Assembly: GCA_945898045.1 (NCBI GenBank)
Contig: CAMDGG010000006.1
Coordinates: forward strand, 5,393 to 69,392
Origin: a bacterium UBP8_UBA817
Lineage (GTDB): Bacteria; Margulisbacteria; Marinamargulisbacteria; SXXA01; SICP01
Length of the DNA stretch: 64,000 nucleotides
Reading direction: 5' to 3'
Below the pieces are notes generated by a model. It was not told where the DNA came from. It worked only from the letters and a program-made list of their open reading frames with translations, and did not search any database. This document shows, piece by piece, positions 2,624-62,413 of this stretch. A program made the translations under genes and the position numbers. The number at the start of each line of letters is the position of its first letter. Positions within the stretch are counted from its first letter, which is position 1.

Positions 2624-3300
2624 CCTTCGTATTGCCCCAATTCTTTATCTCGAATTACTTTACCATTTTCAAGACCTACAACGCGCTTTCTAATATCATC
2701 CACAATACTCTTATTATGCGTCGCCACAACCACCGTGGTTTGACGTGCATTAATCTTGCTCAACAACTGCATAATTTCCCAAGACGTATCAGGATCCAAA
2801 CTACCCGTAGGTTCATCTGCAAGCAAAATGGGAGGATTATTTACAATAGCGCGAGCAATACAAATACGCTGCTGCTCCCCCCCAGACAACTCCGAAGGAT
2901 AATGGTTAAATTTCTCCGAAAGGCCTACTAATTCCAAAACCTGCGTCACCTGACGTCTAATCCGTGCTCGGGAATAGTGCATCACTCTTAAAGCAAAGGC
3001 TATATTTTCATACACCGTACGACGAGGCAATAACTTATAATCCTGGAAAATCATACCTATGCCGCGACGAAAATAAGGAATTTGATTTTTCTTAATCGAA
3101 TTAAGCGCAAAATTATCAATATAAATTTCACCCGAGCTGGGCACTTCAGAACGAAAAATCATATTCAACAAACTGGATTTTCCAGCACCAGAAGGCCCTA
3201 CCAAATAGACGAATTCACCGCGACCAATATGCAAAGTCACATCTTCTAAAGCAACAAAACCATTAGGAAAAACTTTACTAATATTTTTAATCCGTATCAT
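2620..3300 (-). CDS. ftsE: cell-division ATP-binding protein FtsE
   Basis: Walker A GPSGAGKSS, ABC signature LSGGEQQR, Walker B LLADEPTG. Paired with ftsX. Confidence 0.92.
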   Translation of the reverse strand: MIRIKNISKVFPNGFVALEDVTLHIGRGEFVYLVGPSGAGKSSLLNMIFRSEVPSSGEIYIDNFALNSIKKNQIPYFRRGIGMIFQDYKLLPRRTVYENIAFALRVMHYSRARIRRQVTQVLELVGLSEKFNHYPSELSGGEQQRICIARAIVNNPPILLADEPTGSLDPDTSWEIMQLLSKINARQTTVVVATHNKSIVDDIRKRVVGLENGKVIRDKELGQYEG

Positions 3301-3307
3301 AAGTCTC

Positions 3308-8676: not shown

Positions 8677-9294
8677 ATGACACAAGCAAAAACAAACATC
8701 CTAAAACAAACAACCCTCACAATCCTCAGTGTCATTGTATTAGGATCTTGTTTCAACATTTCTTGTGCAAATGACATCGATACAACCAAAAGCACCCTAA
8801 CAATAGACACACTCCTTCACTTTGGATCTGGTTTCAACGATACATTTCAAGCCCCTAGCGGCAGCAAAGATTCCGTTAACCTCAACAACAAAACCAACTC
8901 ACTATCCATACTCAGCGCCGGCTTTAAATCACTCGGACAAGAAATGGATCAATATAATGCTGATACACGAAGTGCAGCAAATGGTACTGGACCAGCTAGA
9001 GTAACCACTCCCCCACTTGTCTACCCCAATCCTTTCCGCCAACAAACTGGTGCAAAATTAGGGTATGGATTAGCTGGAGAAATCAATGAAATTGAAATTC
9101 AAATCTATGACATGATGGCTCATTTAATCACAAAAAAGACATTCAAAGATCAAGGTGCAAGACAAGGTTACAACCTTATTGATATCAATCTACAAACATT
9201 CGATGGCTATTTTCTTTCTGCGGGCGTTTATTTTTTCCTCATCCTAAACGACGGGAAAGTACTAGCTAAAGGAAAGGTTGCGGTGATCCCATGA
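8677..9294 (+). CDS. small secreted protein with T9SS-type (Por_Secre_tail / FlgD-Ig-like) C-terminal sorting domain
   Basis: N-terminal signal peptide with a possible lipobox (VLGSC). The C-terminal ~90 aa (LVYPNPFRQ...IEIQIYDMMAHLI...SAGVYFFLILNDGKVLAKGKVAVIP) follows the YPNPF ... GVYF ... K-x-V pattern of type A T9SS sorting domains. Confidence 0.6.
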   Translation: MTQAKTNILKQTTLTILSVIVLGSCFNISCANDIDTTKSTLTIDTLLHFGSGFNDTFQAPSGSKDSVNLNNKTNSLSILSAGFKSLGQEMDQYNADTRSAANGTGPARVTTPPLVYPNPFRQQTGAKLGYGLAGEINEIEIQIYDMMAHLITKKTFKDQGARQGYNLIDINLQTFDGYFLSAGVYFFLILNDGKVLAKGKVAVIP

Positions 9295-10220
9295 AAAGAC
9301 TAGCGCTAGCAACATGTATCGCAGTGCTTCTATTGAACACTTCTGCAAAAGCAACTGGAGAATTCTTCATCTCCACAGATGTAGGGTCTTCAGCAGAAAT
9401 GATTGGTCAAGCTAACGTAGAAGGCTTTACCGACAAAGCCAATAACGTTTTTGATAATCCTGCAGGACTTTATAGAATCAACCAATTCTCTACCAGTCTC
9501 TTCACAACAACATTCATGAACGAAGTCACTTATAAAAACATATCTGTAGCAATGAGATTAGCAGAAGGTGTAATAGGATTAGGCTATATGTCTACAGATG
9601 TAAGCGGACTGATCTCAACAACTGCAAACAGAAATGAAAACCAAGAAATCACAGAAATCACATCAGATGGCAACACGTTCGGCTATAACAACACCATGAT
9701 CAAAGCAAGTTACCAATGGTCTCAAACTGAACACCTCCACTGGGGCACATCAGCCGCCTACTATACAACTTCAATAGGGGACGTTACTGGACAAGGTATT
9801 AATCTAGACGCAGGCGTCATCCTGGATTACTATCCTTTAATACTATCTATATCAGCAAAAAACGTATTAGCTGGTAAAGTAAAGTATTCTAATGGGGGCG
9901 AAGAAAATCTTCCGCTACAAACAACATACGGGGCACAATACAATTTCAATGAATTCCAAGTTGCTGGACAATTCAAAAGCAAAGGAAGCAATCACAATAT
10001 GCTGAAATCAGCTTACATTGCTTACCACCCCAGCGCGCTACCTTTTCTAGAATTATCAGGTGGTTACAAAGAATACAGTGTATTAGATGCAGTAAAGAGT
10101 AATTTAACATTTGGATTAGGATTAAACCTCTCAACAATCAGTTTCAACTATGCCTATGAGTCTAGCGAGAACATTCAATTCAACCACAAACATTATTTTT
10201 CAGTCGGCCTTTCTTTCTAA
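9291..10220 (+). CDS. PorV/PorQ-family-like outer-membrane beta-barrel protein
   Basis: Signal peptide (AKA|TG). The N-terminal GEFFISTDVGSSAEMIGQANVEGFTDKANNVFDNPAGL resembles the PorV/PorQ family start. Alternating beta-strand pattern throughout, with terminal ...YFSVGLSF ending in Phe as in OM barrels. Confidence 0.55.
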   Translation: MKRLALATCIAVLLLNTSAKATGEFFISTDVGSSAEMIGQANVEGFTDKANNVFDNPAGLYRINQFSTSLFTTTFMNEVTYKNISVAMRLAEGVIGLGYMSTDVSGLISTTANRNENQEITEITSDGNTFGYNNTMIKASYQWSQTEHLHWGTSAAYYTTSIGDVTGQGINLDAGVILDYYPLILSISAKNVLAGKVKYSNGGEENLPLQTTYGAQYNFNEFQVAGQFKSKGSNHNMLKSAYIAYHPSALPFLELSGGYKEYSVLDAVKSNLTFGLGLNLSTISFNYAYESSENIQFNHKHYFSVGLSF

Positions 10221-10236
10221 AGAATGAGGACATAGT

Positions 10237-13200
10237 GTGAAACGAAAATTATTACTTGCTCTTCTAACTTGGTTTACTCTCTTCGCAACAGCTGAATTTG
10301 CGCAAGTTACCTTTACATTTCAAGGCAGTTTAATTAGGGCAGACAAAACGTTTGTAAATGGCACCTATAACAACGTAAAAGTGGGCGTATACTCCGGTGC
10401 AGATCAAAACGTTTCCCCCGTTTGGTCAGAACTACAAAATGGTGTAGTTTTTGAAACGGGTCGTTTCAGCATCCTTGTGGGCAACACAGATCCCATAAAC
10501 AATCCTCTGAAAATCGAAACGCTCAATATTAACAGCCCTTACTTAGGACTTACGATTAATGGCAGTGAGTTTTTCATTCCATTTACCTCAACACCCTACA
10601 GCTTGCGAACAAAAGTAGCAGAAAAAACAAATGCCGTATCAGCACAGTATATAGTAGGAACCTTTACAAAGCCTGTAACAATAAAATCCACATTAACCAT
10701 TACCAGCGACAACATAACGCTACTAAAAACCACCCCCTTAAAACAGGTTGGAATCGGAAAAGACAACCCTCTAACAAAAATCGTAAATGGCAAAACAGTG
10801 GCCGACGCAACGCTTGACGTCAACGGCCCCGTCAATAGTCAGACAGGCTTCAAAATAAATGGTGTCGACATCGCAAGCACTTTGTCATGGAAACAAAATA
10901 AAATTGTTACAAAAAATATTTATTATGCAAGTGGGAACGTGGGCATCGGACTACAAAACCCTAGCTATGCTCTAGACGTGCAAGGAACACTGAATGCAAC
11001 ACAAATATTACTTAAAGGGAAACGTCTTTCCGCCGGACTAGATTGGCAGCCCCAAACCAACGCAACACAAAATTTATACTTCAAAAAAATAGAAGATAAT
11101 CGTGTAGGCATAGGAAGAGTAGACCCGCAACAATCACTGGATGTTAATGGCAGTTTGGCTGTATCAAGCAATACTACGGATCAAACAGCCCCACTAAACG
11201 GCATGATCAGAATGTCACCTACCAACAATGAAATACAGGGATTCAGAAACAACCGATGGATTCAGTTAACAGGATTAAGAGGGCAAGGCCAAAAAAATCA
11301 AATTAGTTTCTATACGAATCAATTTGCACTTTCTGGATACACACCCTTTGCATGGAGATCACAAACCAACATGTTAGGCATTGGAATTGCGATACCCCAG
11401 GCGCAATTACATCTATTAAAAACAGAACCCCTAGCCCCTTCCCTTTATATTGGTACAAACACAAATCAAGCTTTATTGGTTGTTACCGCAAATGGAAACG
11501 TTGGAATTGGAACCGCCACACCCAACCAAAAATTGGTTGTAAAAGGAACGCTAGATGCAGAAGAGCTAACCGTAAATGGACTAAACTTATCATTGGCCGT
11601 CTCGAATTCATCCGTATGGATATTAAATAAACAAAGTAGTTTATTTTACAAATTAGGAAACATAGGAATTGGAAAAATCGACCCGAAAAGCCCCCTTACA
11701 ATAGCGCAAAGAATCAACCATCCTGACGAAGACCCGGCATTAACATTTCGTCAAAGCAATGGCAACAGTTATACAATGGGCATTAGTAGTAAATCTCCCG
11801 GCATTTTCCGAGTAGAACGAGGCGACAAATTAAATACCTCCACGCCACTATTTGTCATGAAAGACACCTCCTTTGGTGTGGGACTTACAGATCCATTAGC
11901 CATACTCCATGTCAGCGGTAATGAAGGAGCTGCTTTCAACGGTAAATTCTTTGGTGTAGTTAATGAGACCTTTCCCGAAGTAGACTCCGCAGGAAAACCG
12001 ATTCTTCCACAGGTAGTGCAGGAAGGCGCTGGAACACGGTTTATTTGGCATCCATTACGTGCAGTTTTACGAGCTGGAACTGTGACTGGCAATCAATGGG
12101 ACAACATTAATCTAGGTAAATTCTCTATCTCATTTGGATTAAACAATACAGCGAGCGGTAATTTCACAACGATATTAGGAGGGCAAAATAACCTCGCAAC
12201 AGGTGCTTACGCCACCATATTAGGGGGGCAAAACAACCAAGCCCTGGGCGATTTTTCTTTAGCCGGTGGATATCAGGCTAAAGCACTTCACCACGGATCG
12301 TTTGTGTGGGGAGATCGCCTGGGCCAAGCTCTGAGGACAAACGCTCCTAATCAATTTTTGATCAAAGCATCCAATGGCATAGGGTTCGGAACAAATCAAA
12401 CTTCAACTGATGGCAATAAAAGTACATTAACGATTAAAAAACCAACCCCAAGTGGTAATATTTTTCAAATAGTAGGCCGAAATCTAACCACAGACATCTT
12501 CCAAATAAGCACATCCGGCAATGCCATGATAGGCTCTAAAGCCAAAACAACCGCAGGATTAAGTGTCATCGGGAAAACTCAATTCGGAAAAAAACTAGTC
12601 ACCCCTACGATAAATAGCTTTTTAACAATTTCTAGTGAACATCCTACACAAGCTATTTGGGTTTCAAATAGTGATGGAGATATCGTAACAACGCCAAATT
12701 TCATTCTTACTAGCTCTGGAAACATGGGAAGCAACATCATCCCTTTGGCCTCCGTTATTACGCAGTTTAAAAACGGAACAATTCAAATAGGAAAAGGCGG
12801 TATATTGGGCGACAGCTATGAACTCCCCGACGGAACAAAGATCGGAACACAAGCTATTGAAGTCTGGGGTATAGACTCACCCCCCAACCTCTATTTTACA
12901 ACCGGAAATGTGGGCATTGGCACAACACGCCCTACAAGTCTTTTAACAATTTCAAACGTTGCAAGCAAACTCTTTCAATCACCAAAAAATCCTGCCATAA
13001 CTTTCTCGAAAAACACTACCTCATACACATTAGGTATAGAAAACAATTCACCAGACATCTTCAAAATAGTATCCGGGTATGACCTAATACAAAGCCCAAA
13101 AATTGCGTTTAAATATTTGGATAATTCCATTGGAAGAATGGGCATAGGAACAGAGAATCCAAGAGCAGTATTTCATGTAAACAACGCTGCGATCTTAGGA

Positions 13201-16200
13201 AAAACAATATCAATTGCCACATCAAATAACGATACTAGATACAACTTGATCGCCGGATCAGCCTCTTTCAGGCCTCTATTTTTAAACAAACAATTTACAT
13301 CCGCATCTGGAACACCCTGGACTACAACTAGAAATGCCAGCCTCTATTTTACAAACGGGAAAATTGGAATTGGCACAACTAGACCATCAACAGATATCTC
13401 AATAGCAGGAAGTATAAACGCAACCTCAGTCCGTATTAAAGATGCATTCATAGTCAAAGAAACCACAACTTTAACTCGACTCGATTTCTTAAATGACAAT
13501 GGGCTCCCATTAAGATTGGGAGTGAGTGCTTCCAAGTTACGCCTAGGTGATCTATCTATTTCAGACATCCTCTCCAGAGGAACAAATACAGCACAAACAA
13601 AAGGACCTGTAGTTTTATGGCAAAGCGCCAATGTCTTAGGTGACACACAACTAATATGGGCTTCCGATGCAGCGCACCCTGATCAAAGTGGAACACTCAC
13701 CGCAACTAAAAACGTTCGTATTCCTACCACGTTAACTAAACCCAATTCATTCCAACAAACAACCTTAGTACAAGTAGGGTCTGCCAATATAACCAATGCC
13801 CTCAACATTTCATCAGACCTTACTCATAACGGTAACATTTCTAATTCAGAGTCTCATAGCAGTCAAAAAATAACGCTAAATCTGGGACCAGGTGATTGGG
13901 ACGAGAATAACAATTTCACAGGAATCGATATCAAGATAGTTAATAAAGCCAATGCCAGTGGAGCCACCAATTTCACAACACAATCCCAAGCGATAGGATT
14001 AAATATTGATGTGAGTAAAGTTAAGACTCAACAGACAGGAGAACCTGGATTCAATTTTGCTGCCATTTTTAATGGGAACGTCGGTATCAATAAATTTCCA
14101 TCGCCAACTACACCAACCAGAGCCATATTGGATGTCAAGGGCATTGTAGAGGCCGACTCATTTATCATTTCAAAAAGACTCAGCATCACCACCCTTAACA
14201 TAACTGGCGACGTCTTAACCGTAAAACAAACCCGCCCTATTACCATCGGTCTTCCAAAACCAACCAGCCCGACATACGATCTTCTTATACAAGGAACCGT
14301 AGAGGCGACAAATGGCAGTATTGGGCTCTTAGAAACAAAAACACTAAATACCGCGCAAAACGCACTTCTTGTAAATCAAGCTGGTCAAATAGGTCTTGGC
14401 ACCACATCGCCGGAAGCCGACTTTCACATCAAAAAATTATTTACAACCACAACAGACAAAGATTACTTTGCAAAAATTTCACACAGCACAATTGACATTC
14501 CAATCTCCCCCAAAAAATTAACAACGAACTTTACGGGTTTTGACATCGCTCTGAACACAAAAACGAACAATAAAATAGGACAACCACAAACACCTCAAAC
14601 AGCAACAGGCTTGTCTATCAACCTTAACAATATGGCTTCTAATGCAAACGGTACAATCATTGGGATTTCCAGCAAAACCAATAAAACTCAAAGTAAAGCA
14701 AAATCAGCGCTATTTCTCGGAGGAAATGTTGGCATTGGGGTTACTAACCCAACAAGCACACTCGCTATCGTTGGAACAATCCGAGCAAAGGCCGTAGATA
14801 ACACCAACTTATTAACCCAACAAGAAGCAGCGTCATTTAACAGACTCGTAGTAACCGATAGCGCAAACTTTAAAGGACCCGTCACTGCAAACACCCTCTA
14901 TGCAACAAGCATTATCACCAAGACCGATCAACTTACTATTAACGACAGCATCACGCTCCCTACAATCGCATTAACTATTACAGGCACACCAGGATTATTA
15001 ACAAGTAAAGCACTTTCAATCACAGCAAATACAACAGCCAACGCACTTACTCTCATCGGAAAATTGACAGGCACCTCGGCAACATTTAATAATCTCATCT
15101 TAACCAATTCTCTTACAACCGCTACACTCAATATCTCGCGTTTACAACAAAACGACACTATTGAACTTAATGCAGCACAAGCCAACTTCAACTCACACAC
15201 AATAGTTGCAAATGGAATCGTTGGTATTGGCATCACAAACGCAACAGAACCTCTCTCCATCGCAAGTACTAAAAAAACAGCTACAATCTTACGTGTTCAA
15301 AACCTCTCAGATATCAAGACTACAGCGGCGGGAATTCTGCTAGTACCTGACATCAAAACCGACCAAAATACAGGATCCGGCATTGTAGCCATTAAGGTCA
15401 GCGATACAGGATCAGCTGCACGAGGCTCAGACCTTGCTTTCATTACAGACCCCATCAATGGAACACAATCAGAACGCGCACGTCTTACGCAAGCAGGAAA
15501 CTTTATTATTGGCACCAGAAATGCCTCAAGCAAGTTATATGTCCATCAAACTTCTGTAATACAAAATACGGCGACATTCAATACAAAAGTCACTACAAAA
15601 GCGCTGACCTCTGCAAGTGATATCAGCATTAAAAAAACAACTATATTTAATAATGGAGCAGAAATACATGCCCTTTTGACTCAAAAACCTATCCTCATTA
15701 AATTAACTACGCTTGGCTCTGTCACATCTGGAACCAGCGCACTAAGCCCTTCATCGTCTGGAAAATTAATTTACAAAACAATCTTGGATGATAATTCGGT
15801 TGTTGCCTCTGACATCACTTCTCTTGTAACTGGATCCGTTGGACGACTCCCTTATTATACGAGCAGTCATAAATTGACAGATACATCCTCTTTAACATGG
15901 GTAACACAAAATATATCCAGCATTCCCTACAGTACCCTCGTTATTGGGAAAGTAAGTTCTGCAAGCATGGCCATAGTCGCAACGCTAAATAATACATTAA
16001 TCGGCAGCCCAACAGCTGAAGACATCCAACTAACATTTAAAGATCGCACTTCTGATATTTCAACATATGGAGGAAGAAAGTTCTACGGTTTACAAATTAT
16101 CGCTTCCAGAAACACCAATGCCAGTGTAGCCCCAGGAGAAACAACAAGAGGCCTATATGTTGACCTCTCTTCACTTAAAGCTGAAAGCACTAACTTCCAA

Positions 16201-19200
16201 GGTGACGGAGCCATACTGAAAGGAACTAAATACGTAGCACTTTTCAAAGGAGGAAATGTCGGTATTGAAACAACGTCTCCAAACGCAACACTACAAATTC
16301 AACCCAAAGATAATATAGACTCTTTTCAAATTGACACCAAAACTCAGGCCGGAACAGTCATTACCAAAGCACTCATGGTAAATATAAGTGGAAATAGTGG
16401 TATAGGGGCCACTTCAAACGCCAAACTCACGCTTAAATTATTAAACACAACCTCATCGGAAACCGCCGTACTAATCACTGATTCAAGTAAAAACCCTCTA
16501 TTCACAATAAAAAACAATAATAAAATAGGAATTGGTACAGCTGCACTTTCAACCGAATTTAATATAGCTGATCCAATAAAAGCTAAAACACATACCGTAC
16601 AAACGTTATTAGCAAATACATTAACCATTAACACCGATAAATTAGTCGTTCAGAGCAACGGTAACGTGGGAATTAGCAACACAAACCCACAAGCACAACT
16701 CCATCTAATCCAAAAATTGACGCAACAGCCCCCAGCCAACTTTATTATGGAAAACCTGGGCCTTACAATTGGATCCACCCCCCTAAGAAAAACGCTAACA
16801 GGTCTTTCCTTAACTATTACATCTAACGCTTACAATTTATTAGGCCTCGATGGCATCCCGAATAAAGGGACCGGCATTAAATTTTCTGCACCCTCCTTAG
16901 CCCTTAGTACCACATCAACGTTAGTAGGCATCAACGTTAACGTACCGAAGGGGACAAGCTCCAATAGCACCGTCATCCGAGGTGGCAACGTAGGAATAGG
17001 CATTACAAATCCAAGCGCAACACTTCATATAGCCGGCACCTTAAGAGTAAGCGGAAACATTCTTCAAACAAAACCAGGAAATTTGTCTATTCCTGGAGTA
17101 ACAGCAAATAAATTGGCATCAACAGGAACAAACTCATTTAACACCGTTAAAGTACTCAGTCCATTTAAAAAAGTAGTGGTCACCGATAAGCTAGTCACAA
17201 ATAGATCTTCTGTGTCACTTCTACAAAAAGCACCCACAACAAATGTCATCTTATTAACCAGTAACTCCATTGCGCGTTTTCAAAAAGCGGCAACAGGAAC
17301 AACCAATATCCCACAGAAAAGTGTATTCAATATCGCCTCACAATTACCAACACAAACAGCTATGACACTTCAAAAAGGAACCGCTATCGTCACAAATATG
17401 GCTACTCTTCCCGTAAGCAGAGGTCTCGCAACACTCCAATATGACAGCACATTGGATGTAACCCCTGTACCCGCATTAATTATCGGAACAAGTCTGACCC
17501 CAAATGCACTCGTGATCAGCAATACAGGTCAAGCCAGCATCGGAACAGCTTCAAGTCTTGCAAAATTAACAGTCATTGAAGGTAGTTCCCGATCAACAGC
17601 AAAAGCCCTCTCCATAATCAATACTTCAGGAACACCCCTCTTAAGCGTGATGAATGATACAAACGTAGGCCTAGGAACAAAATCTCCCCAAGCAATAGTC
17701 CATATTGTCGGTCAAAGTACTCAGTCCACGCTACTAAAATTAGCCTCTTCTACATCTGCAAACATTCTGACTATGATAGGAAACGGTGCCATTGGTATCG
17801 GTACAACAGCACCAGATAGCGCACTACAAGTTCAAGGTACTTTTAAAATATCATCGGCCCCCACACCCAACCTCATTTCCGTATCTAATGCAGGCAATGT
17901 AGGCTTTGGGAAGGACGCAAACGCTAACTATCCTCTTAACCTAGATAATAATATGCGATTAGGAAATAGCACAGATGGAACACTTCCTAACTATTTGACT
18001 AATCAGTCAAGAAAAAATAGAGGTTTTATAACACAAACGGGCAGTGACCACACGTTCTTTGGACTAAGAGAAACAGTCACTGGAAATAGCAATTACGCCC
18101 CTGTCGTTTATTGGGGAAGCAGCGATACGGATGCCTTAACATTCGAAACCAGTGCCGGCCTTGAAGCCGCGAGATTAATCAATAAATCAATGAGTATAGG
18201 TGGTATCACACCAAGCGCTACATTACATATCAGCAATATCAATAACCGTACGGCCCCTTTATTAACTTTAAAAACTGCAAAATTCCCAAATATGCTCACC
18301 ATCACAGCCAATGGTTCCATAGGAATTGGAACCGCCCCCACAATCAACGCAGATGTCTTTGTTTCAGGATCCGTCTTCGCCAAAGGTCTAAAACAACCTC
18401 CAGGAGGCACAGAACTAACAGCCCCCACCATTAACATTGTCAATTCAACAACAACCTATTCAAGCTTTTCAGTATCCTCAAATATTCTGTCAGACCTAGC
18501 ACAAACAGCAGAAAGAATAACCCTACAACTTGATAAAGACTCAACCGGAACACTTATCGGAAAAAGCATCACACTATTATCATCTGTTACACAAACCAAT
18601 GTAGGGGATCTAGCTACTACTCAGCGCGGGCTTCGTGTAGATATCAGCAATCTTTTTATCGACAAAAATCCTGCATTTGGAGTAAACACCGCACAAAAAT
18701 TTGCAGCTACCTTTAAGGGCGGTAATGTAGGCGTAGGCACAAAAACACCCAAAACATGGTTTGAAGTAACTACCAGTAAAAATGCCCCTGGCAATATTGC
18801 CAGCTTCAGAGCAACTCCCAACATAGTTCCCGGAGGAATCAATATAAAACAAGCCGACCTTACCTTCACAAGCTATCCAACCGTTAATATTTCCGGACAG
18901 AAATTATCTGTCCCTACAGACTCGTTCAAAACCATCGCGTACACACTACCAAATGGCCAACTTTTCAACGGAGGTAGCACATTCTACGTCACAGACGACA
19001 TCGCAAAAGCCATTATGATAAAACTAAAGGGGGGAGCAACACCAATTATTGATAGTGTCACCAGGAACGTTAACCAAACAACTAAAACAACGTTGAAATC
19101 GGCTATTACCAATTATTCAACCAACGGGTACTTTGTAGACTACATCACAACACAAAATGTCTTATCTGTTCTCTTACCCTTTATAGAAAAACACACCATC

Positions 19201-20598
19201 GCACTACAACACACAGATCTCAACAACAATTCAACAAGTTACAACGTACTGAGTTTTAGCACCGGACTTGTGGCAAGAAGACCCAATATCGACAGTCCCC
19301 TCAACACAACTAAATTATTACAAAATGCCTTTAAGTTTACTGGCAGCATGGGTATCGACGTCCAAAAAGCAGATATACCCTTACAAAACACCTCATTGAC
19401 CGTCAGTGGCAATATTAGAATTGGCACGATTCATAATACCTTCAGCGTAGAACCTGTTGCAGTTGGACCCAGCCTTCGATTCTCAGGAGGCTATCTTGTC
19501 AGCGACACAGCGCTCAATAGTGACAATAAAGAAGCCTTTTCAATCCTCCGCAACAATATCGAAGATGGCATCTCTCAATTTCGCATTACAGTCGGTGCAG
19601 AAAGTACCAACCCAAATGCGCTATTCACTGTTGGGTACAATACAAAAGGACGCATTACAGAATTTAGTGGCGGTACTTGGAAAAATGTACTCAATGTGCT
19701 CGCGACAAAAAATGGAACAACCCCTGTTGGACGCGTTGGTATAGGCACAACAGCACCACGGGCTACACTACATATTGTCGGAACTGGCAATTTTAACGAG
19801 CTTACCGCTAACCCCACTACTATCGCCCAGACAGCCTTAGTTCTATTCGAAAACCAATCCTCTTCAGGCGCACAAACATTGGCCATCAAAAACAATACAG
19901 ACTCCGCACTAACTACAGAAGCAAACTTCATTACCTTCCTAAGTTCGACGACCAATATCAGCACAACATCTACGCTTGGATCTATCGAAGGCAATGCTAG
20001 CGGTGGCGTCCAATTCACATCACCAGAGGGTGACTACGCAGAGTACATGCCCAAAGAAAATCCTGAAGAAAAATTCGCACCAGGAACAGTAGTCGGCATC
20101 CACAAAGGAACTGTCAGTAAAAAGACCCACGGGGCAGATCAAATCATGGTTATCAGTTCCTCCCCAATTATCATAGGAAATGCAACAAAAGAAACACAAA
20201 AGAATCACGCCCTAGTCGCCTTCTTAGGACAAGTCCCCATCAACGTTACAGGTGCCGTACAGGCAGGCGACATTCTCATTGCATCCGGTCAAAACGACGG
20301 TTTAGCCATTGGTGTTCCTGCGGACAAAATCACAGCCTCTCAAATCGATCTTATTCTAGGCCGCGCTTGGGAAAGTACCCACAAAGAAAATTCTAAATCT
20401 ATAAAAGCAGCCATCGGTTTTTCTTACGGATTACAAATTTTTGGCAAACAACTCTCTAGTATCAAAACAATGGCATCTAGTGTGCAAGAGCTACAAAAAG
20501 AACTCGACCAAAAACAAAAATACTATTTAGACATCCTTGAAAAACGTCAAAACAAGATCCAACTTCTCAAAGAAAAAACAGGGATGGTCACGCCATGA
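10237..20598 (+). CDS. giant secreted fibre/adhesin-like repeat protein, tail-fibre-like (paralog A, 3453 aa)
   Basis: Uninterrupted 10.4-kb ORF with a GTG start a few nt after GAGGA. Signal peptide MKRKLLLALLTWFTLFATAEFA. About 30 copies of GNVGIGTxxPxxxLxVxG. A YadA-head-like GxxNxAxG segment. The C-terminal GDYAEY domain and terminal coiled coil are both conserved in the second giant ORF. Confidence 0.85.
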   Translation: MKRKLLLALLTWFTLFATAEFAQVTFTFQGSLIRADKTFVNGTYNNVKVGVYSGADQNVSPVWSELQNGVVFETGRFSILVGNTDPINNPLKIETLNINSPYLGLTINGSEFFIPFTSTPYSLRTKVAEKTNAVSAQYIVGTFTKPVTIKSTLTITSDNITLLKTTPLKQVGIGKDNPLTKIVNGKTVADATLDVNGPVNSQTGFKINGVDIASTLSWKQNKIVTKNIYYASGNVGIGLQNPSYALDVQGTLNATQILLKGKRLSAGLDWQPQTNATQNLYFKKIEDNRVGIGRVDPQQSLDVNGSLAVSSNTTDQTAPLNGMIRMSPTNNEIQGFRNNRWIQLTGLRGQGQKNQISFYTNQFALSGYTPFAWRSQTNMLGIGIAIPQAQLHLLKTEPLAPSLYIGTNTNQALLVVTANGNVGIGTATPNQKLVVKGTLDAEELTVNGLNLSLAVSNSSVWILNKQSSLFYKLGNIGIGKIDPKSPLTIAQRINHPDEDPALTFRQSNGNSYTMGISSKSPGIFRVERGDKLNTSTPLFVMKDTSFGVGLTDPLAILHVSGNEGAAFNGKFFGVVNETFPEVDSAGKPILPQVVQEGAGTRFIWHPLRAVLRAGTVTGNQWDNINLGKFSISFGLNNTASGNFTTILGGQNNLATGAYATILGGQNNQALGDFSLAGGYQAKALHHGSFVWGDRLGQALRTNAPNQFLIKASNGIGFGTNQTSTDGNKSTLTIKKPTPSGNIFQIVGRNLTTDIFQISTSGNAMIGSKAKTTAGLSVIGKTQFGKKLVTPTINSFLTISSEHPTQAIWVSNSDGDIVTTPNFILTSSGNMGSNIIPLASVITQFKNGTIQIGKGGILGDSYELPDGTKIGTQAIEVWGIDSPPNLYFTTGNVGIGTTRPTSLLTISNVASKLFQSPKNPAITFSKNTTSYTLGIENNSPDIFKIVSGYDLIQSPKIAFKYLDNSIGRMGIGTENPRAVFHVNNAAILGKTISIATSNNDTRYNLIAGSASFRPLFLNKQFTSASGTPWTTTRNASLYFTNGKIGIGTTRPSTDISIAGSINATSVRIKDAFIVKETTTLTRLDFLNDNGLPLRLGVSASKLRLGDLSISDILSRGTNTAQTKGPVVLWQSANVLGDTQLIWASDAAHPDQSGTLTATKNVRIPTTLTKPNSFQQTTLVQVGSANITNALNISSDLTHNGNISNSESHSSQKITLNLGPGDWDENNNFTGIDIKIVNKANASGATNFTTQSQAIGLNIDVSKVKTQQTGEPGFNFAAIFNGNVGINKFPSPTTPTRAILDVKGIVEADSFIISKRLSITTLNITGDVLTVKQTRPITIGLPKPTSPTYDLLIQGTVEATNGSIGLLETKTLNTAQNALLVNQAGQIGLGTTSPEADFHIKKLFTTTTDKDYFAKISHSTIDIPISPKKLTTNFTGFDIALNTKTNNKIGQPQTPQTATGLSINLNNMASNANGTIIGISSKTNKTQSKAKSALFLGGNVGIGVTNPTSTLAIVGTIRAKAVDNTNLLTQQEAASFNRLVVTDSANFKGPVTANTLYATSIITKTDQLTINDSITLPTIALTITGTPGLLTSKALSITANTTANALTLIGKLTGTSATFNNLILTNSLTTATLNISRLQQNDTIELNAAQANFNSHTIVANGIVGIGITNATEPLSIASTKKTATILRVQNLSDIKTTAAGILLVPDIKTDQNTGSGIVAIKVSDTGSAARGSDLAFITDPINGTQSERARLTQAGNFIIGTRNASSKLYVHQTSVIQNTATFNTKVTTKALTSASDISIKKTTIFNNGAEIHALLTQKPILIKLTTLGSVTSGTSALSPSSSGKLIYKTILDDNSVVASDITSLVTGSVGRLPYYTSSHKLTDTSSLTWVTQNISSIPYSTLVIGKVSSASMAIVATLNNTLIGSPTAEDIQLTFKDRTSDISTYGGRKFYGLQIIASRNTNASVAPGETTRGLYVDLSSLKAESTNFQGDGAILKGTKYVALFKGGNVGIETTSPNATLQIQPKDNIDSFQIDTKTQAGTVITKALMVNISGNSGIGATSNAKLTLKLLNTTSSETAVLITDSSKNPLFTIKNNNKIGIGTAALSTEFNIADPIKAKTHTVQTLLANTLTINTDKLVVQSNGNVGISNTNPQAQLHLIQKLTQQPPANFIMENLGLTIGSTPLRKTLTGLSLTITSNAYNLLGLDGIPNKGTGIKFSAPSLALSTTSTLVGINVNVPKGTSSNSTVIRGGNVGIGITNPSATLHIAGTLRVSGNILQTKPGNLSIPGVTANKLASTGTNSFNTVKVLSPFKKVVVTDKLVTNRSSVSLLQKAPTTNVILLTSNSIARFQKAATGTTNIPQKSVFNIASQLPTQTAMTLQKGTAIVTNMATLPVSRGLATLQYDSTLDVTPVPALIIGTSLTPNALVISNTGQASIGTASSLAKLTVIEGSSRSTAKALSIINTSGTPLLSVMNDTNVGLGTKSPQAIVHIVGQSTQSTLLKLASSTSANILTMIGNGAIGIGTTAPDSALQVQGTFKISSAPTPNLISVSNAGNVGFGKDANANYPLNLDNNMRLGNSTDGTLPNYLTNQSRKNRGFITQTGSDHTFFGLRETVTGNSNYAPVVYWGSSDTDALTFETSAGLEAARLINKSMSIGGITPSATLHISNINNRTAPLLTLKTAKFPNMLTITANGSIGIGTAPTINADVFVSGSVFAKGLKQPPGGTELTAPTINIVNSTTTYSSFSVSSNILSDLAQTAERITLQLDKDSTGTLIGKSITLLSSVTQTNVGDLATTQRGLRVDISNLFIDKNPAFGVNTAQKFAATFKGGNVGVGTKTPKTWFEVTTSKNAPGNIASFRATPNIVPGGINIKQADLTFTSYPTVNISGQKLSVPTDSFKTIAYTLPNGQLFNGGSTFYVTDDIAKAIMIKLKGGATPIIDSVTRNVNQTTKTTLKSAITNYSTNGYFVDYITTQNVLSVLLPFIEKHTIALQHTDLNNNSTSYNVLSFSTGLVARRPNIDSPLNTTKLLQNAFKFTGSMGIDVQKADIPLQNTSLTVSGNIRIGTIHNTFSVEPVAVGPSLRFSGGYLVSDTALNSDNKEAFSILRNNIEDGISQFRITVGAESTNPNALFTVGYNTKGRITEFSGGTWKNVLNVLATKNGTTPVGRVGIGTTAPRATLHIVGTGNFNELTANPTTIAQTALVLFENQSSSGAQTLAIKNNTDSALTTEANFITFLSSTTNISTTSTLGSIEGNASGGVQFTSPEGDYAEYMPKENPEEKFAPGTVVGIHKGTVSKKTHGADQIMVISSSPIIIGNATKETQKNHALVAFLGQVPINVTGAVQAGDILIASGQNDGLAIGVPADKITASQIDLILGRAWESTHKENSKSIKAAIGFSYGLQIFGKQLSSIKTMASSVQELQKELDQKQKYYLDILEKRQNKIQLLKEKTGMVTP
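10741..19782 (+). repeat. array of ~30 degenerate in-frame G-(N/K/R)-(V/I)-G-I-G-T-x-x-P-x-x-x-L-x-V-x-G motifs with a ~2.1-2.5 kb super-repeat
   Basis: Examples are GNVGIGLQNPSYALDVQG, GNVGIGTATPNQKLVVKG, GNVGIGTTRPTSLLTIS, GNVGIGVTNPTSTLAIVG, GNVGIGITNPSATLHIAG and GRVGIGTTAPRATLHIVG. The larger module GL-x-V-D-x-S...(K)(Y/F)AA-x-F-x-GG-x-VGIGT recurs near 13981, 16145 and 18620. Confidence 0.85.
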
Positions 20599-21122
20599 AC
20601 GAAAAGCATCTCCATTCCGAACAGATTTATAACGGCCGCATCCTAAATCTCAGAAAAGATACGGTGCTGCTTACCAATGGAAAACAAGCCACCAGAGAAA
20701 TCATTGAACACGACCCCGCAGTCGTTATCATCGCCTACGATACAAATAAAACAATTCGGCTCGTCAAACAATACCGAACTCCAGTACAAAAAGTTCTACT
20801 CGAAGCCCCTGCCGGAATAATTAATAAAGGTGAACGTCCTCTCAACGCAGCCAAACGAGAATTACAAGAAGAAACAGGACTCACAGCAACACACTGGACG
20901 CCCTTAGGCGAAGCCTACCCTGCCCCAGGATTTTGTAATGAATACCTCTATTTTTTTCTTGCCCAAGACCTCCAACAAGGCCCCACAAATCCAGATGAAG
21001 ATGAATTCTTAGAACAAGTTTCACTGTCAATGGCAAAATACCAACACCACATCCAAACAAAACAAATTATCGATGCCAAAACAATCCTGTCTTTTTTTTA
21101 CATAAAGGAACTTGGATTATGA
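20595..21122 (+). CDS. NUDIX hydrolase (ADP-ribose pyrophosphatase-like)
   Basis: Nudix box GIINKGERPLNAAKRELQEETGL (Gx5Ex7REUxEExGU). The ATGA start overlaps the stop of the giant ORF. Confidence 0.85.
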   Translation: MNEKHLHSEQIYNGRILNLRKDTVLLTNGKQATREIIEHDPAVVIIAYDTNKTIRLVKQYRTPVQKVLLEAPAGIINKGERPLNAAKRELQEETGLTATHWTPLGEAYPAPGFCNEYLYFFLAQDLQQGPTNPDEDEFLEQVSLSMAKYQHHIQTKQIIDAKTILSFFYIKELGL

Positions 21123-21988
21123 AAAACCACATGCCCGCATTTTTCCACTACCTCTCCTATGAAAAAAGAGTCTCTCCAAACACTATCACTGCATACAGAC
21201 AAGACCTCACGCAGTTTTTCGAACAACACACAGACCTTACAGGTGATACCATTTCACAATTTGTCACAGAACTAACACAACAAGGCTACAAAAATGCATC
21301 TGTTACACGCAAAACCTCTTCACTCAAAACATTTACTACTTTTCTTTATCGAGAAAAATACATATCCACCCACCCCATCGCCCTTTTAACACGTCCAAAA
21401 CGTGAAAAACGTCTCCCGACCACACTAAATTCATACGAAATTAATGAGCTGCTACATACAGCGGCAGATCATACTAAAACCCCACTGAGAGACATTGCAT
21501 TAGTCGAAATACTCTATGGCTGTGGACTCAGAATTACAGAATGCCTCAACATCAAATTAACAGACATCAATCACCATCAACAAACTTTACTCGTGACAGG
21601 GAAAGGACAAAAACAACGTCGTCTTCCTATTGGCACCAAAGCCCATGAAGCCCTTGTCTCTTATATCAAAAAAGAACGACCCTTATTAGAAAAAACAAAC
21701 ACGACAGACTTTCTTTTTATCACCCGATCTGGAAAACGATTGTCACGGCAAAACAGCTTTAGCCGCATCAAAGCACTCGCCAAACAGGCCTCACTAACAA
21801 AAAAAATGAGTCCTCATACCCTAAGACATACCTACGCAACCCATTTGCTAGACGGCAACGCAACGCTGCTAGAAGTACAAGCACTCCTCGGCCATAGCAA
21901 TATCACCACCACACAACTCTATACCAAAGTTTCTACAAAACGACTCAAAGAACGCTATTATCAAGCACATCCGAGGGCTGTCGCATGA
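21119..21988 (+). CDS. xerD: tyrosine site-specific recombinase, XerC/XerD type
   Basis: N-terminal SAM-like domain (FFHYLSYEKRVSPNTITAYRQDL). Catalytic region LRITECLNIK...GKGQKQRRLPIG...HTLRHTYATHLLDGNATLLEVQALLGHSNITTTQLYT (R..HxxR..H..Y). Confidence 0.85.
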   Translation: MKNHMPAFFHYLSYEKRVSPNTITAYRQDLTQFFEQHTDLTGDTISQFVTELTQQGYKNASVTRKTSSLKTFTTFLYREKYISTHPIALLTRPKREKRLPTTLNSYEINELLHTAADHTKTPLRDIALVEILYGCGLRITECLNIKLTDINHHQQTLLVTGKGQKQRRLPIGTKAHEALVSYIKKERPLLEKTNTTDFLFITRSGKRLSRQNSFSRIKALAKQASLTKKMSPHTLRHTYATHLLDGNATLLEVQALLGHSNITTTQLYTKVSTKRLKERYYQAHPRAVA

Positions 21989-22578
21989 CCATAGCCATTA
22001 GCATTCTATCTCTATTAATCGCCGTTATCTTCCATGAAGTTGCACATGGGTATGTGGCCTATCGCTTCGGAGATCCTACGGCCAAACTTCAAGGCCGAAT
22101 TAGTCTCAATCCACTAGTCCATATTGACTGGCTAGGTTCTATTATCTTACCTGGCATTCTTATTCTTTCAGGAGCCCCCTTCCTCATTGGATGGGCAAAA
22201 CCAGTGCCCATCAACCCCAATTATTTTCAAAACCCCCTTCGAGACATGATGTGGGTAGCCATCGCAGGTCCACTCACCAACATCACGATAGCCCTCATTG
22301 CAAGCACCCTTTTAAAATTCCATCTCAATAGTGTTTTCGACTATTTTTTAGCCGTATCAATAAGCATTAACATCGTACTGGCACTCTTCAACCTTTTTCC
22401 AATCCCGCCACTCGATGGATCCCGCATATTAATGTACATAGCGCCAAAATCTCTCCAACAGTTTTTAACATCCATAGAGCCTTACGGGCTCGTTATTCTA
22501 TTTTTTCTAGTCTATCTCAACGTCTTTGAGAAGATCTTGCCGTTTCTGATTCACCCCATATTGGAGGCACTATTATGA
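21985..22578 (+). CDS. site-2 protease family (M50) intramembrane metalloprotease, short form
   Basis: HEVAHGYVA zinc motif, multiple TM helices, and a NLFPIPPLDGSR motif. Confidence 0.8.
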   Translation: MTIAISILSLLIAVIFHEVAHGYVAYRFGDPTAKLQGRISLNPLVHIDWLGSIILPGILILSGAPFLIGWAKPVPINPNYFQNPLRDMMWVAIAGPLTNITIALIASTLLKFHLNSVFDYFLAVSISINIVLALFNLFPIPPLDGSRILMYIAPKSLQQFLTSIEPYGLVILFFLVYLNVFEKILPFLIHPILEALL

Positions 22579-25500
22579 AATGCAAGTTTTTCCAGAAAAG
22601 ACTCGATATGAAAAATAAGAAAATCAAAAAAAATAAGGGTATAATTGTGAAAACACTAATGAAAACAAAAACGTTAATCACCCAAGCCCACCTATGGATA
22701 AGCATCCTCTTCCTAGGGTTACTCACAACCGTAAGCTTTGCTGATACGCCAATGGTTTTAACCTTCCAGGCAACCCTAGCTACACAACAAGGGGGACTTG
22801 TACAAGGTAGAAACAAAGTAACCGTAGGGATATACCCAGGAAATTCAACTGTTGCCACATGGCTTGAACCTCACGAGAATGTACTCTTCATAAATGGCAG
22901 CTGTAGTATTATCCTCGGAAACATACAGCCACTCACAGCAGACCATCTCAATATTACAAATCCGCGCTTCGGCCTCCAAGTAGGCAATAATTCTCAAATT
23001 GCCTACTTTCCTGTTCCTGCCACACCTTATTCTATCCAAGCTAAGGTAGCAGACTCTGCATTGGCCGTTTCAGCCAATAATATTTCAGGCACCTTCACAA
23101 ATCCTGTTAGGATAAATGCAAATCTATCTGTAGGAGATACGACATTATATGCCAATCCAACATCAGGAAAAGTAGGGATTGGAACCACCGCCCCAACCTA
23201 TAAGCTAGACGTTGCGGGAATTATCAATGCGACAGGATTCAAAATCAATGGCACCGACTTAGAATCATCCTTATCATGGCAAAAAAATGCCAATAGCGGC
23301 CTATATTATACCCAAGGAAATGTAGGTATAGCCACACAAAATCCAAAGTCGCTTTTAGAAGTTGCAGGAACAATCAATGCGCAAGAAATACGTATAAAAG
23401 GCGTTGAACTTGCAACCCTACTTGCCACACAACTTGCATGGCGTGAAGGAGCTAGGCCTAAAGACATTTATTTTAATGACGGTACCCAAGAAGGTAATGT
23501 AGGTATTGGCACCTCCCAACCTCGCACAAAATTAGATGTTGCAGGCGCTATTCGTGTAGGAGAAGCCCAAAGCAATGCATTGGGAAGTATTCAATACAAA
23601 AACAATGATTTTCAAGGATTTACAAGAACAGGATGGACTTCTTTTGCATCTTTAACTGGCATTGGCTCAGCCAATCAAATTCCTTTCTGGACAAATTCTA
23701 CAGAACTCACCGGAAGTAATAACTTAGTCTGGGATCGCACAAGAAATAGATTAGGCATAGGAACAAGTAATCCCACTGCACAACTAAGCATGACTGCAAT
23801 TGACGCCAATCGCGCACTCGTACGCATCGACAGCTCATTAGGTAAATCTTTATTTTATGTAGGAAGTCAAAATATAGGAATTGGCACATCAACCCCCAAT
23901 AGTAAATTGTCCGTAAAAGGAGTCGTTGATGCGGAGGCCTTTTTAGTTAAAGGCGTTCCTATAGCACAAGCCTTATCTTCAAGCTCATTTTGGATTTTCC
24001 AAAATGACGGCCGTATCTACTATGACAGAGGTAACGTAGGAATCGGAACAACTAATCCTAAAAATCTTTTAGAATTAGCAGCATCCCCCTCACACGACCC
24101 AATTATCACCTTTGATATTGCAAGCACGCCAGCTTTTAGTTTAGGGATATCAGAACTCAATCCTGACGCCTTCATTTTAGGCAAAGGCGGAGATCTTAAA
24201 AACCCTATCTTTGTTTTTAATGGCAATAAAATTGGTGTAGGTCTAACCAATCCAAGCGCAAATTTACACGTCAGTGGAAACAATGGCGTTCTGTTTACAG
24301 GGAATTTAAACAATGGTGTCCCATTAGGCATCAAAGGGGAAGGCACACGTCTTGTTTGGCATCCCGGAAAAGCAGCATTTAGAGCGGGTTACGTACAAAG
24401 AAAACAATGGGACGACGAAAATATTGGTTTATATTCAGTCGCAATGGGATACAACCCTTCCGCCAATGGGCTTGCCTCCGTAGCAGCAGGTGGATATGAA
24501 AGTGATGCCGCTGGAAATTACGCAGTCGTTGCAGGCGGCTTTCAAAATAAAGCCAAAGGAATACATAGCTTTGCAGCAGGACACCAAGCTCAGGCCCTCC
24601 ATTCTGGAGCCTTTGTCTGGAGCGATTATTCCCCAACAGCTTCAGAAACCAGTTTTAAATCTATCGCTTCTAACCAATTTGTACTACGGGCGTCAAATGG
24701 TGTTGGTATTGGCACAAACCTAACAGCAGGAAATGGACTTACCGTAGCATCAGATCTTAATGATACTTACATCATAAATGCTCTTAAACCAAATGGCACA
24801 AGCGCCATGATCGTCAATGTATCCGGAAATGTTGGGTTGGGAACAACTGAACCAGGGATTTCGAGGCTTGCTGTCATGAACGGAAAAGTTGGCATTGGAA
24901 CAACGACCCCAATCGCTCAATTAACTGTCTCAGGAAATACTCCCGAAGGATTTCTATTCGTTGCCTATAAAAACAATGGTCAACCCGGCTTATTTATAAA
25001 AAATGATGGAAAAATCGGTCTCGGAAAACCTCTAAGCTATGTCTTTCCAGACGATGTCTACTTGGCCATTTCAGGTGCCGTAGTAGGGAATGCATTTGCA
25101 ATCCAAAACCCCAACGGAAGTACAACCCCAATAGAAAGTAACCCTGGATCACCTTGGGCAATCCCCTCTGAAAATCTTAGTAGCACGTTCTTTAATAAAG
25201 GCTTTGTAGGAATAGGAACCCGAGCACCCGCAAGTCTATTAGAGTTATCTAACGCAGCCTCAGCAACTCGAAATCCAGTCATAACATTCGACACAGATGG
25301 CGTAAAACGATTTAGTTTAGGCACCACTGCCAATGTCTTTACCATTCAAAAGGGCGGCAATATCAATAGTAAAAACCCGCTTTTCGCGCTCACAGATAAT
25401 GGCAGTGGTGGCGGCGGTCTTGGCATTGGAATTGGCTACAAAACACCTAGCGCGTCCTTACATGTCAGTGGCAATTCTATGTTTACAAGTAAAGTCGTTA

Positions 25501-41794: not shown

Positions 41795-42544
41795 CTACAT
41801 CTGCATCCCCCCATCAACATGAAGTACCTGGCCTGTTGTGTAAGCTGCTAAATCAGAGGCCAAAAACGAAACCATCTGTGCAACTTCACGAGCAGAACCT
41901 AATCGCTTCTGAGGGATAGAGGCCATTATAGTATCAAGATAATCTTTAGGTAAAGATTGAATCATGTCTGTCTCAATAAATCCGGGGGCTACAACATTGC
42001 ACGTAATATTTTTCGCACCAAATTCACGCGCAATCGATTTACTAAATCCAATGATGCCCGCTTTAGATGCCGCATAGTTAGCCTGCCCCGCGTTACCCAT
42101 CACCCCAACAACCGAACTAATATTCACAATCCGGCCATACCGATTTTTAAGCATGGGTTTTAAAACGGCCTTCGTAAAATTAAATACCGAATTCAAATTA
42201 ACAGAAATAACATTGGTCCATTCTTCCAAAGACATACGCAACATCAAATTATCCCGCGTAATCCCCGCGTTATTGATCAAAATATCAACGCGCCCAAATT
42301 TTTCTAAAACAGTTTTCACAACAGAGGCCCCGTCTTCAAAAGAAGACACATCCGCCGCAATACCTATACAGGCTACGCCATACGTTTCCTGCAATGCAGC
42401 CGCCACTTCATCACATACAGACTGACGCGTCGCCACACACACGACATTGGCACCATATGACGCCAACGTATCCGCAATCGCATATCCAATCCCACGCGAC
42501 GCACCTGTTACAATTGCAACTTTATTACTGAGGTCCATTTTCAA
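41795..42544 (-). CDS. fabG: 3-oxoacyl-ACP reductase
   Basis: TGASRGIG, NNAG and YAASKAG SDR motifs in fab operon context. Confidence 0.93.
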   Translation of the reverse strand: MKMDLSNKVAIVTGASRGIGYAIADTLASYGANVVCVATRQSVCDEVAAALQETYGVACIGIAADVSSFEDGASVVKTVLEKFGRVDILINNAGITRDNLMLRMSLEEWTNVISVNLNSVFNFTKAVLKPMLKNRYGRIVNISSVVGVMGNAGQANYAASKAGIIGFSKSIAREFGAKNITCNVVAPGFIETDMIQSLPKDYLDTIMASIPQKRLGSAREVAQMVSFLASDLAAYTTGQVLHVDGGMQM

Positions 42545-44138: not shown

Positions 44139-44179
44139 GATAATATTTTAGTTACAAAATAAAACCATGTCAACGTTTC

Positions 44180-60898: not shown

Positions 60899-60975
<77 letters not shown>

Positions 60976-62043: not shown

Positions 62044-62413
62044 CCAATTACACCCATTTCAAGCAAACACCCCTAAAAAGACCCATTTACACCCAATTAA
62101 CCCCTCTAAATTTTCTATAAAAAATCCCAAAAATCATCAAAAAACAACCTAAATCAACACCACCCAACCACACAATTCCGAGTTCAAATCCCCCCCAAAA
62201 AAAACCTCATCGAACAAGCCAAAAATAAATTTTCCATCATTTTTCTATAACTACATTTTCTATTACAAATGAACGTAGTGTGCATCCACAATCTTTTGAC
62301 ATCAAATATGATGCAGATAGCTTAGAACTCTTGAAACAGGCGATCTAACGCTACCCAAAAAGAAATGAGTAATTTTTGTTTGGAGGGGACTACAACAGGG
62401 AATTATCAACATT

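Follow-up and report, generated by a model that had tools for sequence, protein, structure and literature searches.

The closest described relatives of the proteins reported here are the mosaic adhesive trimer (MAT) fibres of Bdellovibrio bacteriovorus, which form intertwined homotrimeric beta-helices on the cell surface (Caulton 2024; PMC10769870). The authors of these structures named a recurring element the capping loop, with the consensus V-G-G/N-pi-x-x-P-x-x-x-L, and found it also in phage fibres carrying an S74 domain and in the eukaryotic protein MyRF (PMC10769870). The stretch of DNA analysed here, referred to as the window, comprises 64,000 nucleotides of contig CAMDGG010000006.1 from the Margulisbacteria assembly GCA_945898045.1, and encodes two giant paralogous proteins, A and B, and a small relative, protein C, all of which carry the motif GNVGIGTxxPxxxLxVxG. 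A and B (Table 1), encoded on a bacterial chromosome, are probably secreted to the cell surface as giant homotrimeric fibres of the MAT or phage-tail-fibre type.

The two open reading frames (ORFs) are colinear paralogs with 32% identity across approximately 2,860 amino acids (aa) and 33% across the C-terminal 400 aa. For B, a 92.7%-identical relative (P0099) and approximately 20 colinear family representatives were identified. Both proteins are rich in Thr, Gly, Asn and Ser, contain between zero and two cysteines, and share one plan: a signal-peptide-like start, an N-terminal domain, a mosaic shaft, a C-terminal chaperone of the phi29 gp12 (Peptidase G2) type and a long helix.

The motif consensus derived from the profile is x-x-x-x-x-x-G-N-V-G-I-G-T-T-x-P-x-x-x-L-x-V-x-G. 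A hidden Markov model (HMM) of the motif, seeded on [VIL]G[IV]G...P instances and read at domain E < 0.1, gives counts of 23 (A), 33 (B) and three (C), which become 23, 31 and three after iteration at E ≤ 0.01. When the residues of A and B were shuffled 100 times, no motif match was obtained, and in all six reading frames of the window the motif is confined to A, B and C; the array is real, non-random and far beyond chance. The initial annotation of this DNA, made from the sequence by eye, was right about B ("about 35") and C (three) and approximately a quarter too high for A ("about 30"), and the bounds it gave for the arrays, 10741-19782 and 23166-31544, mark the first and last motif of each protein (10738-19782 and 23160-31544 here) and not the ends of the ORFs. 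Its proposal of one motif every 80-120 aa is not borne out. The median spacing is 90 aa in A (range 42-346, with 4 of 22 gaps within 80-120 aa) and 69 aa in B (range 19-249, with 6 of 30), so that only 10 of the 52 gaps in the two proteins fall in the proposed interval and the spacing overall, from 19 to 346 aa, is irregular, in a shaft that is a mosaic and contains large segmental duplications.

When the repeat profile was scored against all sequences in the PDB, matches were confined to fibre proteins of B. bacteriovorus, namely 8OND/Bd2133 (E 2.7e-14), 8OJN/Bd3182, 8OL4/Bd2439, and 8OML and 8ON4/Bd1334, and in 8OND, 8OJN, 8OL4 and 8OML the profile falls on the capping loops. The motif is termed the capping loop here because the profile matches 8OND-type trimers whose authors define that very motif; by this homology it is the already published element, and neither the motif nor the fibre principle is new. 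A shaft profile, built from shaft segments of A and B together with short homologs and dominated by the latter, matches 8OND (Bd2133) at E 1.4e-26 over 262 residues and also matches MyRF (7DC3), and protein C alone matches a whole beta-helix module of Bd2133 (8OND, E 1.1e-8 over 143 residues). As judged from these alignments, homology of the MAT type extends past the loop itself. Protein family scans were carried out with Pfam, NCBIfam and PHROG. In PHROG, families annotated as 'tail fiber protein' match B at E 4e-37 and 2e-29 and C at 3e-10, and there is a weak match to A. Short homologs of the A shaft carry the S74 domain PF13884. For this domain, with its catalytic S-D-x-x-x-K, A, B and C themselves have no Pfam match at E ≤ 1, nor do they have an NCBIfam match. 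The motif had been described from the outset as a tail-fibre-type signature that caps the units of a trimeric shaft. The former description agrees with the PHROG matches of B and C and with the S74 domain of the short homologs, and the latter is supported by the matches of both profiles to solved trimeric MAT beta-helices, in which the same element bears the name capping loop.

The shaft itself is, as read from its matches, a mosaic of heterogeneous modules and not a uniform repeat. In both proteins one stretch resembles the head repeats of UspA1 and YadA, with the pattern GGxxNxAxGxxxTIxGG in A, and weak Pfam matches to LbR_Ice_bind (A 633-676) and YadA_head (B 618-640) overlap these regions. 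UspA1 head repeats adopt an obligate-trimer fold. Further along, B 1486-1531 matches a bactofilin-like beta-helix model of Pfam (E 1.7e-8). Segmental duplications with an offset of approximately 750 aa are present within B, where residues 1212-1568 align with 1917-2323 at 34-43% identity, and within A, where residues 1326-1516 align with 2088-2270. The presence of the same internal duplication in both paralogs suggests that large duplications had lengthened the shaft before the two genes separated. From the homology to solved intertwined trimers, the tail-fibre matches in PHROG and the UspA1 head repeats, we infer that A and B form trimers.

At the N-terminus, the translation of A shows a signal-peptide-like sequence with KRK, a hydrophobic run and EFA before Q, and B begins likewise, both as read by eye. 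Directly after it lies a domain of approximately 140 aa. An HMM built from this domain in the two proteins finds it again, always at the N-terminus, in 43 of 150 giant representatives and in 14 of the 83 short homologs that have a G2-type end. In the MATs, the domain behind the signal peptide is beta-rich, conserved and approximately 130 aa long (PMC10769870).

At the opposite end, a search with the last 414 aa returned 83 homologs, many of which are 30-44% identical and carry a precomputed match to the Peptidase_G2 intramolecular chaperone family (PF11962). The family profile matches the released fragment of phi29 gp12 (3GQH, E 3.4e-4). This chain starts with DFAEYFE, and its residues 1-5 (DFAEY) align exactly to DYAEY, which starts at aa 3266 in A and at aa 3068 in B. 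Thirteen family members have DYAEY unchanged, and in an alignment of A, B and 81 homologs (83 sequences) every sequence keeps its D, A and E. An AlphaFold model of A 3150-3453, with a mean predicted local distance difference test score (pLDDT) of 88.6, consists of a beta domain followed by a 50-residue helix, the latter a single helix at model residues 249-299 with pLDDT above 90. Its top PDB matches in Foldseek are 3SUC (E 2e-4) and 3GQH (E 7e-4, TM-score 0.56 normalised to 3GQH), and among viral structures 53 matches were obtained at E ≤ 1e-3, including entries named 'preneck appendage protein' and 'Peptidase G2 IMC autoproteolytic cleavage domain'. From sub-threshold sequence matches and a moderate fold match, the C-terminal domain is assigned as a phi29-gp12-type G2 chaperone. 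The chaperone of the phi29 appendage is beta-stranded and autoproteolytically released, and chaperones of this kind start the folding of the trimer at a short triple coiled coil (PMC4690869); the phi29 virion paper does not mention cleavage (PMC6542822). On the basis of the homology to the gp12 fragment, the DFAEY/DYAEY alignment and the autoproteolytic release of the phi29 chaperone, autocleavage is predicted directly before the aspartate, between G3265 and D3266 in A and between A3067 and D3068 in B.

A and B thus resemble several known systems in part. Like the MATs Bd2133, Bd3182, Bd1334 and Bd2439, they have capping loops and beta-helix modules, a putative signal peptide, an N-terminal domain, a long shaft and an exchangeable C-terminal end (the likeness of the N-terminal domains being one of layout), and they are likewise chromosomal, non-phage proteins with several paralogs per genome. 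The published MATs are, however, 417-1,959 aa in length, whereas A has 3,453 aa and B 3,253 aa with 23-33 loops, and the MAT tips described (S74, TNF-like, lectin, SPRY, beta-sandwich and others) do not include the G2 type (PMC10769870). The UspA1-head-like repeats, the Margulisbacteria host and the conserved tandem pair are further differences from the MATs. Phage fibres and spikes with an S74 (endosialidase-chaperone) domain, such as the K1F endosialidase and T5 pb1, and eukaryotic MyRF share the triple beta-helix with capping loop. In the S74 fibres, as predicted for A and B, a C-terminal chaperone is removed by cleavage once the trimer has folded, but A, B and C lack PF13884 and the chaperone of A and B belongs to a different fold class. 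The pre-neck appendage gp12 of Bacillus phage phi29 (PF11962; 3SUC, 3GQH) resembles the C-terminal domain of A and B moderately in fold and has, at the start of its released fragment, the same D-x-x-E; it differs in being an 854-aa part of a virion without such a long terminal helix, and is 13-15% identical to the domain of A and B. Trimeric autotransporter adhesins such as YadA, UspA1 and AtaA are giant homotrimeric fibres of comparable size (~260 nm is reported for AtaA; PMC13082670), and A and B share with them the UspA1-head-like repeats. The polarity is opposite, however, as the conserved end of A and B is N-terminal and the C-terminus is a chaperone, and Pfam gives no match to a YadA-type C-terminal membrane anchor in either protein.

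In the proposed mechanism, a Sec-type signal peptide would export each chain and the N-terminal domain of approximately 140 aa would, by analogy with the MATs, hold the fibre at the cell surface. The shafts of three chains, approximately 3,000 aa each, would intertwine and fold into a triple beta-helix of heterogeneous modules, whose edges would be closed by GNVGIGTxxPxxxLxVxG acting as the capping loop, as in the homologous solved trimers, with one stretch contributing the putative UspA1/YadA-head-like repeats. Folding would be nucleated by the C-terminal phi29-gp12-type chaperone and the terminal helix, after which the chaperone may be autocleaved just before the D of DYAEY to release a fragment of approximately 187 aa. 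In published MAT dimensions, 370, 334 and 922 aa span ~145, 95 and ~550 Å, respectively (PMC10769870); scaled from these dimensions, at ~0.3-0.6 Å per residue, the mature fibre would be approximately 0.1-0.2 micrometres long. It would most likely mediate adhesion to other cells or particles.

Several results weigh against this interpretation. No Pfam or NCBIfam model scores above its cutoff in A, B or C, and when A and B are compared on their own with the MAT chains the matches reach only E 0.01-0.014. A word-based search with the N-terminal domain of A gave no match, and so no link to the N-terminal domain of the Bdellovibrio MATs. Orthologs of the A type have few canonical motifs (3-15). The PF11962 scores, 19.2 bits for A and 13.1 bits for B, lie below the gathering cutoff of 25, and the fold match of the chaperone is a moderate one (TM-score 0.56 to the target, at 13-15% identity). 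A monomer AlphaFold model of a shaft segment (A 1960-2360), computed from an 18-row alignment, had a pLDDT of 52 and was uninformative; it was kept out of the fold search.

The genomic context and the conservation of the locus point to cellular genes. A genome scan with the C-terminal alignment as query, covering one genome per species, yielded 116 confirmed loci. The best locus, L001, is at 88% identity in a Candidatus Margulisiibacteriota metagenome-assembled genome (MAG) from Lake Baikal, where the neighbouring proteins are 80-97% identical to those of the window, and it is followed by other Margulisbacteria and Marinamargulisbacteria MAGs and single-amplified genomes. In the MAG SICP01000002.1 the neighbours are 88-96% identical. 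The window is core chromosome, with genes for SurA-like, FtsEX, transketolase, RseP, SepF, YchF, M16 peptidase, fab, GlnA, PyrG, DprA, Dxr and Frr products and a tRNA, and no phage structural genes (capsid, tail, baseplate or terminase) were found within its 64 kb. At least 13 genomes contain, at protein identities of 31-69%, the block A, NUDIX, XerD-type recombinase, small M50-like protein, B, small ORF and YchF, and the orthologous loci have uninterrupted ORFs of 2,860-3,620 aa, with 17-32 motifs in those of the B type. With uninterrupted orthologs in a conserved block by ychF and housekeeping neighbours, A and B are, on comparative grounds, real cellular genes. Two candidates were rejected: a Bacteroidota host, suggested by the GC content and a neighbour resembling the type IX secretion system (T9SS), was discarded on the placement in Margulisbacteria and the 88-96% identical neighbours in SICP01000002.1, and a prophage origin on the housekeeping context and conserved synteny.

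Table 1. Coordinates of A, B, protein C and associated features, counted from the first nucleotide of the window.
Feature	Coordinates	Strand	Basis or details
Small protein with T9SS type-A sorting domain, directly upstream of A	8677-9294	+	TIGR04183, 27.8 bits (cutoff 23)
PorV/PorQ-like outer-membrane protein, directly upstream of A	9291-10220	+	PorV_fam, E 1.2e-13, 51 bits (cutoff 90)
ORF A, putative giant fibre protein	10237-20598	+	3453 aa, GTG start
A, signal-peptide-like N-terminus	10237-10305	+	Read by eye from translation
A, N-terminal domain, ~140 aa, directly after signal peptide	10306-10731	+	HMM from A and B N-termini
A, capping-loop array, 23 motifs (x-G-N-V-G-I-G-T-x-x-P-x-x-x-L-x-V-x-G)	10738-19782	+	Motif HMM
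A aa 629-757, UspA1/YadA-head-like repeats	12121-12507	+	phmmer against PDB: 3PR7 (UspA1) E 7.5e-5, 3NTN E 0.015
Duplicated segments in A	14212-14784 and 16498-17046	+	BLAST with chunked queries
A aa 3266-3397, putative phi29-gp12-type (Peptidase G2) intramolecular chaperone domain, starting at DYAEY	20032-20427	+	Profile, model
A aa 3398-3448, long C-terminal alpha-helix, candidate trimeric coiled coil	20428-20580	+	Model
NUDIX (NudE-like), XerD-type recombinase and small M50-like genes between A and B	20595-22578	+	4-bp overlaps
ORF B, putative paralogous giant fibre protein	22575-32336	+	3253 aa
B, capping-loop array, 31-33 motifs	23160-31544	+	Motif HMM
B aa 625-776, UspA1/YadA-head-like repeats	24447-24902	+	3NTN E 0.01
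Duplicated segments in B	26208-27278 and 28323-29543	+	BLAST with chunked queries
B aa 3068-3253, putative G2-type chaperone domain and C-terminal helix	31776-32333	+	Profile, motif alignment
PIN-domain toxin	43462-43854	-	
FitA-like ribbon-helix-helix antitoxin	43851-44138	-	
Protein C, putative mini-fibre (308 aa): signal-peptide-like start, three capping loops, helical C-terminus	44180-45106	-	Motif HMM, 8OND match, PHROG

The recombinase gene between A and B is of the XerD/XerC type (296 bits to TIGR02225). The M50-like gene encodes 197 aa and looks truncated, and the order of the NUDIX, XerD and M50 genes is kept across genomes. These genes belong to the conserved block, and a functional tie to the fibres is not evident. 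The same A-XerD-M50-B-YchF block occurs in loci L016/L068, L019, L025, L031 (labelled Rickettsiales) and L024/L034 (labelled Actinomycetota); the bins with these labels may be mislabelled. Upstream of A, the genes of the small secreted sorting-domain protein (T9SS type A) and of the PorV/PorQ-like protein form a pair that is also present upstream of the A ortholog in L023 (386-1929), the one other locus in which it was seen, as the flanks of the recovered loci seldom reached that far. The T9SS is usually described in phyla other than Margulisbacteria. It is possible that the two upstream proteins are partners of the fibres.

This pair of genes, one above its cutoff for the sorting domain and the other matching PorV_fam, is what suggests that A and B could be cargo or partners of a T9SS-like surface attachment in the manner of SprB, with the PorV/PorQ-like barrel and the sorting-domain protein exporting or anchoring them, an arrangement that would be compatible with a trimeric fibre. 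However, the T9SS C-terminal sorting domains sought in Pfam and NCBIfam (Por_Secre_tail and type-B) are absent from A and B, both of which end in a chaperone and a helix, the PorV-like match lies below its cutoff, the 64 kb hold no further T9SS or gliding genes, and the pair recurs at a single other locus; dependence on such a system is judged rather improbable. Marginally less so, and still unlikely, are monomeric beta-solenoid giant adhesins, in which each chain would form a beta-helix by itself, like many passengers of type I secretion systems and autotransporters, and the motif would be a recurring turn and not a trimer capping loop. The bactofilin-like beta-helix match in B and the weak ice-binding beta-roll match in A would suit such a fold, but the UspA1-head repeats, the trimer-dependent type of autochaperone and the terminal helix point to trimers, as do all the solved structures that match the motif together with its flanks, which are intertwined homotrimers (PMC10769870).

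The PHROG tail-fibre matches, the phage-type autochaperone and the tyrosine recombinase gene between A and B could also be taken to indicate tail fibres of a prophage, a tailocin or a contractile injection system. This is highly improbable, as the window lacks capsid, tail, baseplate and terminase genes and the genes around A and B are housekeeping ones, the recombinase matches XerD/XerC, the N-termini resemble signal peptides, and at least 13 genomes, with protein identities as low as 31-45%, have the block at one and the same chromosomal position. The preferred reading of A and B remains that of secreted, homotrimeric MAT-type fibres on the cell surface.

Protein C would represent a minimal, three-loop relative of these fibres with a different C-terminus. 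Together with an antitoxin and a toxin gene (43462-45106, minus strand) it sits between fabH (45189-46148) and fabD (42525-43445), and the C-antitoxin-toxin group looks like an insertion into a plsX-fabH-fabD-fabG operon. Elsewhere in the window, two ORFs on the minus strand are without a Pfam match, one of 640 aa (58192-60114) and one of 296 aa (62302-63192), and between them lie a Fic-domain gene (60979-62043) and a tRNA gene (60899-60972).

The size of the family was assessed by scoring the repeat profile against all 1.84 billion cluster representatives, as the initial annotation had suggested. A total of 169,698 proteins match at E ≤ 1e-3, 71,691 at E ≤ 1e-10 and 10,596 at E ≤ 1e-30. The best 150 of the 169,698 are 1,878-7,920 aa in length (median 3,886), with 117 of at least 3,000 aa and 31 of at least 5,000 aa, and each carries 23-88 copies of the motif, approximately one per 111 aa. 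Approximately 20 of these 150 belong to the A/B family, with the same N-terminal domain and the same G2 end, and some of the others have S-D-x-R-x-K near the C-terminus, compatible with S74 ends. The four of the best 150 that have a source name are all annotated as 'hypothetical protein', including one from Roizmanbacteria (7,448 aa) and one from Omnitrophota (6,681 aa). The short G2-type homologs, by comparison, have 0-5 loops. Homolog searches returned only proteins of up to 725 aa; these short lists are no evidence that giants are rare, and the exhaustive profile search showed the opposite. A literature search with the motif strings returned nothing, no paper describing giant capping-loop proteins was found, and one preprint reports that Margulisbacteria are rich in very large genes. 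Proteins with dozens of copies, of which the initial annotation was aware of no description, are not rare, with at least 150 clusters carrying 23-88 copies; giant relatives are common, and the named ones are known only as hypothetical proteins.

Many of the largest capping-loop proteins (4,000-7,900 aa; P0085, P0090, P0095, P0100, P0101, P0105 and others) have a recurrent C-terminus, '...FNWWIVN', and also share N-termini such as '...ISLSEAAKISGYSQDYL...', a separate giant architecture. P0085, which is of this type, is from Roizmanbacteria.

The long antisense ORFs opposite A and B had been explained by a peptide of the type (V/G)PIPT(L/F)P encoded by the reverse complement of the motif. This peptide exists: PIP[TN] is encoded five times opposite A and 14 times opposite B, always in a single antisense frame, and the strict form (V/G/A)PIPT(L/F/V)P once in A and seven times in B. 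The motif is not the cause of the ORFs, however, as the whole frame is poor in stops, at 20-26 per 1000 codons a third of the density in the two remaining antisense frames (60-88), and stop-free runs reach 198 codons (e.g., 28085-28666, 28682-29215 and 29234-29755). The long antisense ORFs reflect gene-wide codon composition, through a shortage of stop codons in one antisense frame, and not the motif.

The core of this finding is not new biology, since the motif and the fibre principle are explained by published structures. New are the size, the G2 chaperone and the tandem pair: putative MAT-type fibres at three to eight times the described size, a predicted phi29-type (G2) autochaperone end in place of S74, and a conserved chromosomal fibre pair in Margulisbacteria. 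Little is known of the cell biology and lifestyle of Margulisbacteria, which are uncultured and a sister group of Cyanobacteria, and episymbiotic or predatory lifestyles are suspected for Omnitrophota and for bacteria of the Candidate Phyla Radiation. As a tentative extension, open to considerable doubt, the tandem fibre pair may serve Marinamargulisbacteria and related Margulisbacteria as an attachment organelle that is inherited vertically throughout the lineage, the giants (3,000-7,900 aa, 25-88 loops) may constitute a large undescribed class of cell-cell attachment devices in lineages including the Candidate Phyla Radiation (Roizmanbacteria) and Omnitrophota, and the G2-type autochaperone may represent an unrecognised second module by which trimeric fibres of cells, as opposed to phages, are assembled. 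Should they bind hosts or prey as adhesins, the fibres would provide a concrete handle on the lifestyle of Margulisbacteria. Structural studies and engineering would also gain from them a large and varied collection of long trimeric scaffolds.

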